Shown piece after piece: positions 873 to 22,977 of a DNA stretch of 37,267 nucleotides; position 1 is the first letter of the stretch; every line of letters starts with the position of its first letter. A model generated the notes under the pieces. The model made no database searches. It saw nothing but the letters and a program-made list of their open reading frames with translations, and was not told where the DNA came from. The stretch spans positions 1 to 37,267 of the forward strand of contig JBMFWY010000009.1 in the NCBI GenBank assembly GCA_049964795.1, given 5' to 3'. Both the position numbers and the translations under genes were made by a program. This DNA comes from Candidatus Micrarchaeia archaeon. Lineage in GTDB: Archaea; Micrarchaeota; Micrarchaeia; Micrarchaeales; Micrarchaeaceae.

Positions 873-2462
873 CTATGCCGATACCTTCTCTTTCACCACG
901 AAAAGCCTGAAGTAAGAGAGGTATGCGGAAGAAAGCTTGCCTACGGCACCAAAACCTTTCGAAGCTTCGGCCATGAAAGCTATTTCCTTTTTGCTTATCG
1001 CCCCTAATGCCGCTGCCAATCCGGGATAGATAATCAATGCGATAGCAAGGTTTGCCACTAGCACAAGATAGCTTTCCTTCATATAGAAGGATACAGCTGC
1101 CATTATTATCGCAAGCAGTATCGCGGCAACTGCGATCCTTGCGGGCTTTCCGAAACTTACCCTAATTCCAAACTCTTTCCTTAGCAAGTGGCTGTAGAGC
1201 ACCGTTGCAATCGCTGGGGATATTATGAAGATCGCAGTGAGCGCTCCGTATGCCTTGTAGAGTGGCGTGAGTATGAGAAGCGCCGCCAGCTCTATCGCAA
1301 CTATTGTGAGCTGGTACTGCATAAAGCGCCTTGTATTGCCGTGGCCTATGACAAGAGTGCTTGCCACGCCCCATATTACCTCTATTGCCAATCCTGCAAG
1401 CGCTATTGAAAGATAAATTGGAGCGTATGCATAGGAATGTGAGAACAGCAGGAAGACAAGAGGCTTTGCGCTTCCTATCATGTATGCTATAATCGGCAAA
1501 AGGAGGAAAAAGGTGTAGTATATGCTGCTGTTTATCGCGTGCTCGACTTTTTCCCTCATCTCCTTGCTAGCGAGCATTGTTGAAAAGGCTGGAAGCAGCA
1601 CAAAGGTTATTGAGGTAACAAGTAGGTCTATGAAGCGCGAGCCTTTAAGCGCTATGCCATAGTTGCCCACTATAGTGGCAGTTGCATAAACTCCGAGGAG
1701 CAAAGGAGCAAAGTTCATAAGCCCTGTCATTGCAACATTCGATGCCACCACTGGCATCGAGAACTTTGTTATTTCGCTTATCGCTGCCATCTCCACTTTG
1801 CCAAGCCTAGCGCCTATACTCCTTGCAAGGTATATCAAGGCAGCGATTGCGCCTATCGCTGCTGAAGCGGCGTAACCGGCAATCGCGCCCAGCACTCCGT
1901 AGCCCATGGAAACAAACAGTATAACAAGCAAAAGCTGTGAAACGGCGTATGAAAGGTTTGCGATAGTGGAATCAACCGCTTTGTGCATCCCTATAAGAGC
2001 CGAAACCGCAGCGTTGAAAAGAACTGTAAGGAAGACGCTTGCCGCTGCTATCATCAAAGGCAAGGAGATGGAAGAGTTATGGTAAACGTATGTGGCAACA
2101 TAGGGTGATACCACTATGCCCGCAATTGCTATCGCAAACGCGGCCGATAGCGAAACGAACATGCCGTTCGCTATTATCTTTTTCATGGCCTCCGAGTCTC
2201 TTATTCTCTCGGGCAGCATCTTTCTGAAAGCTGCCCCCATGCCGAAGTTGCCTCCCATACCAAGAACGAGGGAGTAGGATATTACTATAGTGTAAAGCCC
2301 GTAGTCTGCTGGCCTTAGCACTCTTGCAAGGTATACCAGCAGCGCGAGAGAGACAAGTGCGCCTACCACCTTGCCTGAAACGAAGATTGAGCCCCTGCGC
2401 GCTGTCTTTACGCCAAGGTCCTTGAGGCTTTCGGCACTTTCCGCTTCAGGATAATCCATCAA
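873..2462 (-). CDS. oligosaccharide flippase / polysaccharide biosynthesis protein (Wzx/MOP superfamily)
   Basis: 529 aa with many TM helices; LARVL-P-DYG-Y and G-Y-IA motifs typical of Wzx-like flippases. Confidence 0.85.
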   Translation of the reverse strand: MMDYPEAESAESLKDLGVKTARRGSIFVSGKVVGALVSLALLVYLARVLRPADYGLYTIVISYSLVLGMGGNFGMGAAFRKMLPERIRDSEAMKKIIANGMFVSLSAAFAIAIAGIVVSPYVATYVYHNSSISLPLMIAAASVFLTVLFNAAVSALIGMHKAVDSTIANLSYAVSQLLLVILFVSMGYGVLGAIAGYAASAAIGAIAALIYLARSIGARLGKVEMAAISEITKFSMPVVASNVAMTGLMNFAPLLLGVYATATIVGNYGIALKGSRFIDLLVTSITFVLLPAFSTMLASKEMREKVEHAINSSIYYTFFLLLPIIAYMIGSAKPLVFLLFSHSYAYAPIYLSIALAGLAIEVIWGVASTLVIGHGNTRRFMQYQLTIVAIELAALLILTPLYKAYGALTAIFIISPAIATVLYSHLLRKEFGIRVSFGKPARIAVAAILLAIIMAAVSFYMKESYLVLVANLAIALIIYPGLAAALGAISKKEIAFMAEASKGFGAVGKLSSAYLSYFRLFVVKEKVSA

Positions 2463-22002: not shown

Positions 22003-22287
22003 TCACACTTTTTCAAGATGCAGTGAAGGCACTATGAGCTTCCTTTTTGCGCTCATGACATTTACTTCTACTATATAGGCTTCGCCGCGCTGGCCAATTA
22101 TCTTCCCTATCTTACCCCTGTATCTGGGATGCGGTATGTCCCTGTAGTTGCCTTTTGGCACTATCGCCACTTTGTCCCCTATGCTGAACTTTTTCAGCTG
22201 ACTCCTCGTGCCGAGGCTCGAAGGCCTGTGGTGCCTTGCTATATTCCTTGTCCTTTTCGAAAGCATGCCGTTTGATTTCATGGTCAT
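22003..22287 (-). CDS. rpl21e: 50S ribosomal protein L21e
   Basis: KSNG...TR, F-IGDKV, PHPRYRGKIG, HLEKV. Confidence 0.94.
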   Translation of the reverse strand: MTMKSNGMLSKRTRNIARHHRPSSLGTRSQLKKFSIGDKVAIVPKGNYRDIPHPRYRGKIGKIIGQRGEAYIVEVNVMSAKRKLIVPSLHLEKV

Positions 22288-22495
22288 TGCTATCTCCTTA
22301 ATTATTTATTATAGAAAATGTCCAATTAAAAAGCATTTGCACTGCTTTGGCGGATTTTCGCCGCTGCAGCGTCAAATAGCAATAAGGATTAGCAGCATAA
22401 CCTATTTAATAGTTCATTTGCAAACTCTTTTTGTAAAGGAGAGTGCGCGCGATGAAGCCGCTACCTCCGTTGTTTAAAAGCAAAAAGTGTTGCGA

Positions 22496-22813
22496 ATGGC
22501 TGAAAGAGTTTCTACTCCGCACAAAAGGGTCACGCTGAAGCCCACTTACCACGTGGTAAACATAGTCGCAAATGCCGACTTGAACACCTATCTTGATCTT
22601 TACGGTCTTGCAAGCATATCCCACGACGTGGACTACGAGCCGGAGCAGTTTCCTGGCGCCATACTGAAGGTCTACAACCCCAAGGCGGCGCTGCTGCTTT
22701 TCAAGAACGGCAAAATGATATGCACCGGCGCACGAACTGTTTCAGACGTAAGGAAAGCGATAGCAGAGGCTGTTGAGCTCATCAAAAAGTACAAGAAGCA
22801 GTCTGGAGAGTGA
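22496..22813 (+). CDS. single-repeat TATA-binding-protein-like protein (105 aa)
   Basis: One complete TBP repeat: NIVA..DL...LDL...YEPEQFPG....P-A-LL-FKNGKMICTGAR. No second repeat. Confidence 0.9.
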   Translation: MAERVSTPHKRVTLKPTYHVVNIVANADLNTYLDLYGLASISHDVDYEPEQFPGAILKVYNPKAALLLFKNGKMICTGARTVSDVRKAIAEAVELIKKYKKQSGE

Positions 22814-22857
22814 AAAAAAACCCTTTTTAGGCATATACGTTAATAACCAAAAAACAC

Positions 22858-22965
22858 CGCAAAATATTTATATAGGGTAGTATAAGATACTACCACGGTT
22901 TTTTACGCTGTTTCTGTAAAAACCCTATTCTCATCCACCCAAGGCGTATGCTTTGCATACGCCTT
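22858..22965 (+). other. BRE/TATA followed by three inverted repeats; candidate sRNA or regulatory element, last hairpin a likely terminator
   Basis: TTTATATA 22867-74; GGTAGTAT-AAG-ATACTACC 22876-94; GGTTTTTTAC..GTAAAAACC 22897-924; AAGGCGTATGC-TTT-GCATACGCCTT 22941-65. Confidence 0.45.
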
Positions 22966-22977
22966 ATATTTTAGCTT

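Follow-up and report, generated by a model that had tools for sequence, protein, structure and literature searches.

A TATA-binding protein with a single repeat in Micrarchaeota, probable subunit of the only TBP of its lineage

We describe here a gene for a TATA-binding protein (TBP) of one repeat, named TBP-A, which lies on contig 9 (JBMFWY010000009.1, positions 1 to 37,267) of the Candidatus Micrarchaeia archaeon assembly GCA_049964795.1, this whole stretch of 37,267 nucleotides being called the window. To our knowledge, a TBP of two repeats is regarded as universal for Archaea and Eukarya; the symmetry between its repeats has long been interpreted as a relic of an ancestor with one repeat that worked as a homodimer, and no such ancestor has, as far as we know, been seen at work. 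Apart from TBP-A and one unlinked paralog, no transcription factor of the TBP fold was found in this genome. The gene and its immediate surroundings are the following.

22496..22813 (stop codon included), plus strand: TBP-A, single-repeat TATA-binding protein of 105 aa (open reading frame, Pfam, AlphaFold2 model, Foldseek, dN/dS, orthologs)
22288..22495, unstranded: divergent intergenic region of 208 bp between TBP-A and L21e (read from the sequence)
22003..22287, minus strand: ribosomal protein L21e gene, divergent neighbour (Pfam Ribosomal_L21e, E 1.7e-14)
22824..22828, plus strand: run of five T, 11 nt past the TBP-A stop (read from the sequence)

The TBP-A open reading frame (ORF) goes from an ATG at 22496 to a TGA at 22811-22813, and its frame is open from 22478 only, that is, for six in-frame codons before the ATG. 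The initial annotation of this locus had proposed a 105-aa protein with exactly one TBP repeat, and this was confirmed with Pfam PF00352, which aligned TBP-A residues 18-99 with positions 2-85 of its 85-position profile (E 7.2e-26, 90.3 bits vs. a cut-off of 22.9) and found no second TBP repeat in the protein. The NCBIfam models of full-length TATA-box-binding protein align TBP-A to either of their halves with 67-80 bits vs. cut-offs of 181-347, below every full-length cut-off. TBP-A is therefore not a canonical TBP, with two tandem repeats in one polypeptide of ~180 aa, yet its single repeat is complete (S1-H1-S2-S3-S4-S5-H2, about 85 residues), and it corresponds to what is called a monopartite TBP, having a single domain, fewer than 150 aa, and no second domain adjoining. 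An AlphaFold2 monomer model made from a 71-row alignment (predicted local distance difference test, pLDDT, 88.7) shows the same complete order of strands and helices. The first 44 matches of this model in a Foldseek search of the PDB were all TBPs, on whose halves it superposes with a root-mean-square deviation of about 1 Å over 78 columns, covering one half of their ~180-residue chains; the E values were 1e-7 for TBPs vs. about 0.3 for glycosylases.

The gene is under strong purifying selection. Compared with the nearest species, dN/dS came out at 0.046 (dN 0.034, dS 0.73) and not near 1, and with the next species dS is saturated at a dN of 0.05. The gene is intact and not truncated, and the earlier view that no frameshift has shortened it is borne out. 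Among 71 A orthologs there are 36 invariant columns, including N22, V24, F52, L67, F69, I75, and T77, all of which align with DNA-contact positions of solved archaeal TBPs; we take these residues (the S1 Asn/Val, two Phe, Leu, Val/Ile, and Thr) to be the ones that contact and kink DNA in TBP-DNA structures, so by alignment TBP-A has the DNA-contacting and kinking residues of canonical TBP. The key residues picked out in the initial annotation are all present as Asn22 (NIV), Phe52 (EQFPG), Phe69 (LLLF), and Thr77 (CTGA). Identity to either canonical repeat is 35-42%, with 42% and E 4e-36 for the TBP repeats of S. acidocaldarius. The stirrup reads YEPEQFPG in A, in its paralog B, and in every Micrarchaeota repeat aligned, and the C-terminal stirrup of TBP is presumably the TFB (transcription factor B) side. 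In the 1AIS structure of P. woesei TBP in complex with TFB and DNA, it is the C repeat that has YEPEQFPG, the N repeat having YNPEEFPG. Each subunit is thus predicted to offer a full DNA half-site plus a stirrup of the TFB-binding type.

Compared with the canonical archaeal TBPs of S. acidocaldarius (1MP9), P. woesei (1PCZ/1AIS), and M. jannaschii (2Z8U), TBP-A has the same fold, belongs to the same family, and shares the DNA-contact residues, with a stirrup equal to the C-terminal one of P. woesei. In contrast, these TBPs have two fused repeats where TBP-A has one per chain and would need two chains to make a saddle, and the N/C asymmetry of canonical TBP would be absent from a TBP-A homodimer, in which both stirrups are of the TFB-binding type.

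There is no space at the locus for a missing half. The free flanks, put at ~205 and ~165 bp by the initial annotation, measure 208 bp upstream and 164 bp (22814-22977) downstream, where a convergent GCD14/TrmI-like methyltransferase gene follows. In a sample of 80 named loci fetched with a TBP-A ortholog, L21e adjoins the ortholog about 100 bp upstream in 66, so a second repeat would not fit there, and in none of the 80 was there space for one upstream; likewise, no relative had a full-length ortholog at this locus. DUF655 is likewise upstream of the ortholog in 55 of these loci and the methyltransferase downstream, at a variable distance, in 47.

The assembly to which the window belongs (Micrarchaeota, DPANN) has 724,721 bp in 34 contigs and is 91.6% complete with 2.2% contamination. 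It contains two PF00352 matches, TBP-A on contig 9 and a second gene, TBP-B, each within a 111-aa open frame.

G000:C4:36603-36848, minus strand: TBP-B, unlinked single-repeat paralog (PF00352)

TBP-B also has one full repeat, 50% identical to TBP-A over 84 residues. A six-frame hidden Markov model (HMM) search of the assembly gave E 6e-35 and 1e-33 for A and B and E 0.54 for the next match, so that neither PF00352 nor the six-frame search found any two-repeat TBP gene in the 725 kb; one TFB gene is present. The initial annotation had seen TBP-A as a possible alternative to, or competitor of, a canonical TBP, and this part does not hold, since no canonical TBP was found in the assembly; for this reason TBP-A is better read as a subunit of the general TBP. 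The best reading accordingly changes: no longer a half-TBP of an odd, accessory kind, the protein would be a subunit of the sole TBP of this lineage, and the second, unlinked paralog makes an A-B heterodimer a live alternative to the homodimer first imagined.

The same architecture is found well beyond this genome. We searched 24 relatives in its own family (f1), 15 genomes of the sister family (f3), and a sample of the class, 101 genomes at least 85% complete whose states were counted by reading the match rows, a search at the scope of the phylum covering this one class; an unpublished genome, G100, adds one to the f1 counts, and nothing else depends on it. PF00352 matches were found in 22 of the 24 f1 relatives, 21 of these having exactly two single-repeat matches (the second being partial in G001 and G008) and the other, G014, having, besides its two, an ORF with two repeats on another contig; no PF00352 match was found in G003 (60% complete) and G004 (92% complete). 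In the one-contig genome G013 the two matches are far apart, at 119 kb and 882 kb, as is also the case in G104. In the cultivated Ca. Micrarchaeum sp. A_DKE, whose chromosome of 990 kb is closed, single-repeat matches were found at 156 kb and 787 kb and no further TBP match. In f3, a single match was found in 8 of the 15 genomes, including the one-contig G032 and G035, two matches in 6, and two plus a two-repeat ORF in G029; the lone f3 genes all fall in the A clade, and B stands alone in no sampled genome. Of the 101 genomes sampled from the class, 99 matched and 2 did not: 46 have one single-repeat gene (counting G068, whose two weak matches make up one repeat), 26 have two or three unlinked ones (16 in f1, 4 in f3, 5 in f8, 1 in f23), and 23 have a two-repeat gene, recognised as adjacent matches in one frame of 187-223 aa (22 genomes of f5, f10, f13, f14, f16, and f19, plus G029), with another 4 left unclassified because 8 match rows are outside those read.

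Databases show the same picture. TBP-A as the query retrieved 541 clusters of 57-184 aa at E <= 1e-5, and a single protein of the f4 type retrieved 764 clusters of 52-168 aa at E <= 1e-10; these ranges take in some two-repeat proteins of ~180 aa, but most of the clusters listed have 95-130 aa. Their labels are mostly none, "hypothetical protein", or "TATA-box-binding protein, partial", and the close homologs are labelled Candidatus Micrarchaeota, Micrarchaeaceae, or Micrarchaeum ARMAN-1, besides a few metagenome-assembled genomes (MAGs) labelled Marsarchaeota or Acidoferrum. Ortholog ORFs of up to 221 aa (L041, L014, L047, L066, L011, and L007) still contain one Pfam repeat. A whole archaeal lineage, including a strain (A_DKE) with a closed genome that grows in laboratory co-culture, appears to initiate transcription with single-repeat TBPs only.

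The most reasonable mechanism suggested by these sequences is that the saddle is rebuilt by dimerisation. Two single-repeat subunits would pair via their S1 strands and H2 helices, rebuilding the ten-stranded saddle that two fused repeats make in canonical TBP, and, with two Phe pairs, one per subunit, the dimer would bind to AT-rich TATA boxes and bend them, while the single TFB of the genome would be recruited through the stirrup, present in its C-repeat-like form on each subunit. A homodimer would be two-fold symmetric, with a saddle having two equivalent TFB sides, and because of this symmetry the direction of the promoter would be set wholly by TFB and the TFB recognition element (BRE), as is already held for archaeal promoters. 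The A homodimer would be the main general factor, given that relatives live with A alone, and B would serve as a further partner or as an alternative TBP. This model builds on the single repeat, the absence of a two-repeat gene, the clade-wide conservation, the invariant DNA contacts, and the purifying selection, and from them we infer the dimerisation, the TATA binding, the recruitment of TFB, and the choice between homodimer and heterodimer. We hold it very probable that there is no TBP other than the single-repeat subunits and that these act as dimers; if so, the A homodimer has a somewhat better than even chance of being the main form here, and the full reading, in which the subunits dimerise into the general TBP of the lineage mainly as A homodimers, is one towards which we lean with fair confidence. 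In favour of A-A pairing are the strong similarity of the A proteins between B-bearing and B-less f3 species and the about 46 class genomes with one gene only. A prediction of the two-copy TBP-A complex (71-row alignment, without controls) scored 0.31, the mark being 0.42, and speaks neither for nor against it.

Several observations weigh against this model. B is kept throughout f1, and the f1 A proteins are altered in the interface strand S1 (invariant T17 and Y18, and a Val where other A types have Glu), two features that fit A-B pairing at least as well as they fit A-A. The genome to which the window belongs is only 91.6% complete, and three other genomes that are 91-93% complete, G004 (of the same genus), G056, and G082, yielded no TBP repeat when searched with the Pfam model or, leniently, with a protein query, which means either that absence calls in MAGs are imperfect or that a TBP can be missed; two of the three are in 7-9 contigs, and assembly gaps are a simple explanation. 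Two MAGs of the order also carry a two-repeat TBP (G014:C43, locus L003, and G029:C77:2653-3174), in both cases on a short contig and beside two half-TBP genes. The G014 ORF is of the ordinary archaeal type (42% identity between its N and C repeats, scoring +16 and -16 bits, respectively, in the N/C test) and may have come in by transfer or as contamination from a host-like archaeon.

The strongest competitor is an obligate A-B heterodimer, in which the two unlinked genes would be the two halves of one TBP and A alone would be nonfunctional in f1. Both genes occur in 22 of the 22 f1 genomes with any TBP match, and in 20 of 20 in the phylum-scope search (G100 included); within a genome, A and B are 40-56% identical and so differ as much as the N repeat of a canonical TBP does from its C repeat; at the three columns that separate N from C repeats, B is C-type and A is N-type (Gln vs. 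Glu before the S1 Asn; Val vs. Ala in S4); and the interface-strand changes of f1 A are specific to the family. However, the A type occurs without B in 8 of 15 f3 genomes, so A-type proteins can work alone, and the f3 A subtree implies at least two losses of B. Over the entire repeat, HMM log-odds are near zero and leave both proteins unassigned (A +1.8 and B +1.9 bits, compared with +8.5 for true N and -10.8 for true C repeats), and the approximately unbiased (AU) test disfavours placing B with canonical C repeats (p 0.038), A and B lying within one Micrarchaeota clade. Moreover, a likely ACG start in 10 of 14 f1 B genes, if a poor initiator, would make B scarcer than A. On this balance we regard an obligate heterodimer as possible but rather unlikely.

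Much less probable is that TBP-A is a monomeric nucleic-acid-binding protein of the TBP fold with another role, after the pattern of the RNase HIII domain or the monopartite Thermococcales proteins, transcription proceeding without a classical TBP or with one diverged beyond detection. Such single TBP domains, having a different role or an unknown one, are recorded in the sections of Brindefalk et al. 2013 (PMC3597702) on these proteins, and G004, G056, and G082 would be three fairly complete genomes living without a detectable TBP repeat. Against such a role, TBP-A is close to canonical repeats, unlike the Thermococcales proteins that the same sections describe as distantly related (PMC3597702), its DNA-kinking and TFB-stirrup residues are all invariant, TFB is present, and the six-frame search of the assembly showed no further TBP-like candidate; we consider it quite improbable. 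A 34-contig MAG of this completeness also invites the suspicion of an artefact: the contig could be misassembled, the gene could be a pseudogene or newly truncated, or a canonical TBP could lie in the 8% of the genome missing from the assembly. The artefact reading is close to refuted, and we give it hardly any weight: closed genomes, that of the cultivated strain included, have the same architecture, which excludes the misassembly that the initial annotation had wanted checked; most of those listed among the 541 and 764 database clusters are 95-130 aa long; dN/dS is low; and the synteny is conserved.

On the side of TBP-B, we observed that its gene probably starts at a non-canonical ACG. The genes concerned are locus L002 (G000:C4, minus strand) and the orthologs L028, L030, L035, L041, L043, L045, and L158-L161. 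In 10 of the 14 f1 B genes, an in-frame ACG lies exactly 5 nt after GGTG, a distance equal to the genome-wide Shine-Dalgarno (SD) spacing; at the same spot L023 has ATG and L047 has ATA, and five f1 B genes have no ATG, GTG, or TTG at all ahead of strand S1. In L002 the putative ACG is just upstream of the 96-aa ORF 1465-1755 (minus strand); there the motif reads GTGAT-TAA-ACG, and the alternative start would be an ATG 7 codons before the S1 Asn. ACG is a poor initiator in other prokaryotes, and such an apparent start in most f1 B genes hints at a lower abundance of B than of A.

As to the evolution of these proteins, all Micrarchaeota repeats form one clade vs. the canonical repeats (Shimodaira-Hasegawa-like approximate likelihood ratio test, SH-aLRT, 93; 0.78 in a larger FastTree tree, whose comparison set of 85 other two-repeat TBPs consisted of 84 database representatives and the G014:C43 ORF), and the two-repeat TBPs of Micrarchaeota fall inside this clade with their N and C halves alike. 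Inside it, too, the B proteins of f1 and f3 form a clade (98), and f1 A (99) joins f3 A (87). The halves of the Micrarchaeota two-repeat TBPs (L067-L071, from G042, G114, G057, G077, and G047) are 53-68% identical, compared with a median N vs. C identity of 39% (range 28-63) in the 84 others, and in free trees their N and C halves group by lineage. Against this, AU tests reject neither a single N clade (p 0.47) nor a single C clade (p 0.49), and the HMM log-odds give the halves no N or C assignment; re-fusion is therefore part of a tentative scenario and not of our main reading. An N-side placement of the Micrarchaeota clade seen as a FastTree split (support 0.94) was not relied on either, as it comes from 87 columns with outgroups chosen by similarity and the HMM disagrees with it.

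These data may reflect one reduction with re-duplication afterwards, several separate reductions of an ancestor that was unusually symmetric, or gene conversion. One tentative scenario, about which we keep more doubt than belief, is that the ancestor of the phylum cut its TBP down to a one-repeat homodimer as its sole factor, and that lineages later rebuilt the asymmetry independently; the routes of that rebuilding, put forward with the same reserve, would be tandem duplication and fusion in f5, f10, f14, f16, and f19 and unlinked A/B duplication in this order, where the A and B subunits would be drifting towards a heterodimer. If this were true, the one-, two-, and even three- or four-repeat TBPs of one phylum would be a living series for the passage, postulated long ago, from homodimer to fused pseudo-dimer. 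With respect to the longest of these, the database representatives P0122 (272 aa), P0124 (376 aa), and P0144 (702 aa) contain three or four Pfam TBP repeats each and are either real genes or fused gene calls. Separately, five genomes of one genus in f8 (G063, G069, G072, G112, and G118) have two or three unlinked single-repeat genes, those on G063:C1 lying at 448 kb, 894 kb, and 1045 kb; the copies L053-L055 are closely related in-paralogs, from which it follows that the half gene was duplicated more than once in the phylum.

Haloarchaea have multiple TBP and TFB paralogs, possibly for alternative promoter sets, and by analogy these might be a model for the role of TBP-B, with the difference that the haloarchaeal paralogs have two repeats and those of Micrarchaeota are half-size and could also mix as heterodimers. 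The TBP-like domains at the N-terminus of RNase HIII and in DNA glycosylases are, like TBP-A, single nucleic-acid-binding copies of the TBP fold; unlike it, they are found within enzymes, are far diverged, and are not transcription factors. Closer precedents are the monopartite TBP-domain proteins that Brindefalk et al. 2013 (PMC3597702), in the sections devoted to them, report from Halobacteria (TbpA) and Thermococcales, each beside full TBPs, with sizes of about 90-140 aa and in the view of those authors no misannotations; they report TbpA as non-essential and the Thermococcales group as distantly related to TBP, and DPANN genomes are outside the coverage of those sections. These proteins are, like TBP-A, stand-alone archaeal single TBP domains, but those of their Table 3 and TbpA are all found beside a full-length TBP (PMC3597702). 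No full-length TBP was found in the TBP-A genome or its closed relatives, and TBP-A is close to canonical TBP and represents a state common to most of a phylum. The novelty that the initial annotation had cautiously raised therefore stands in part: stand-alone TBP domains as such were already known, at least from the Halobacteria and Thermococcales covered in that paper, and what seems undescribed is a lineage with single-repeat genes as its only TBP. The full-text literature, subscription journals and the supplements of PMC8407392 and PMC8204110 aside, yielded no description of single-repeat TBPs in Micrarchaeota or DPANN. A 2021 DPANN survey scores TBP as conserved and no more (PMC8407392), and the passages on TBP in a 2026 paper (PMC12917281) still describe the archaeal protein as bipartite. 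For annotation, this means that "TBP present" scores of the kind given in the text of such marker-based surveys (PMC8407392) hide the difference between single- and two-repeat proteins. Beyond annotation, natural proteins would now be at hand for testing whether a symmetric TBP dimer can nucleate a directional pre-initiation complex, whether BRE and TFB alone are sufficient for polarity, and how asymmetry evolves, by means of the A/B paralogs and the re-fused repeats.

Returning to the locus, the intergenic region before TBP-A contains a TATA-like TATTTAATA at 22403-22411 and a TTTAAAA at 22473-22479, either of which could be a candidate promoter element of the gene; the latter, centred ~20 nt before the ATG, is too close for the usual archaeal TATA spacing of -26/-27. 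A Shine-Dalgarno-like AAGTG at 22485-22489 precedes the ATG, the genome-wide SD signal being G-rich at -9 to -6. Past the stop codon, the run of five T is a possible terminator of TBP-A, oligo-T stretches being generally known to act in archaeal termination. Genome-wide, the most enriched upstream hexamers are TATA-like AT-rich words (TTTAAA, 6.8x) with an A-rich 5' flank, which fits an ordinary TBP/TFB promoter grammar and discriminates between none of the models. Forward and reverse TATA-like words are about equally common upstream of genes, and we do not accept the palindromic character of TATA boxes as evidence that the TBP is symmetric: AT-rich intergenic DNA and divergent promoters would give the same result, and so would the near-palindromic TATA boxes of ordinary archaea.

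A conserved structured element was also found 3' of TBP-A, at 22866-22973 on the plus strand, where an 18-mer (22923-22940), invariant and single-stranded, and a 9-bp hairpin, also invariant, come after a TATA-like TTTATATA. By blastn it is present in about 65 of the fetched Micrarchaeaceae loci, nearly always 70-200 nt after TBP-A and on the same strand, and it is kept at 82-97% identity while synonymous sites are saturated. It is a single-copy element with a fold z-score of -3.96, without any Rfam match or complementary target in the assembly, and may be a new small RNA or a 3' untranslated region (3'UTR) element. Lastly, far from TBP-A, a tRNA match of 114 nt at 313-426 on the minus strand of the window spans the whole 71-position model, and this tRNA probably contains an intron.
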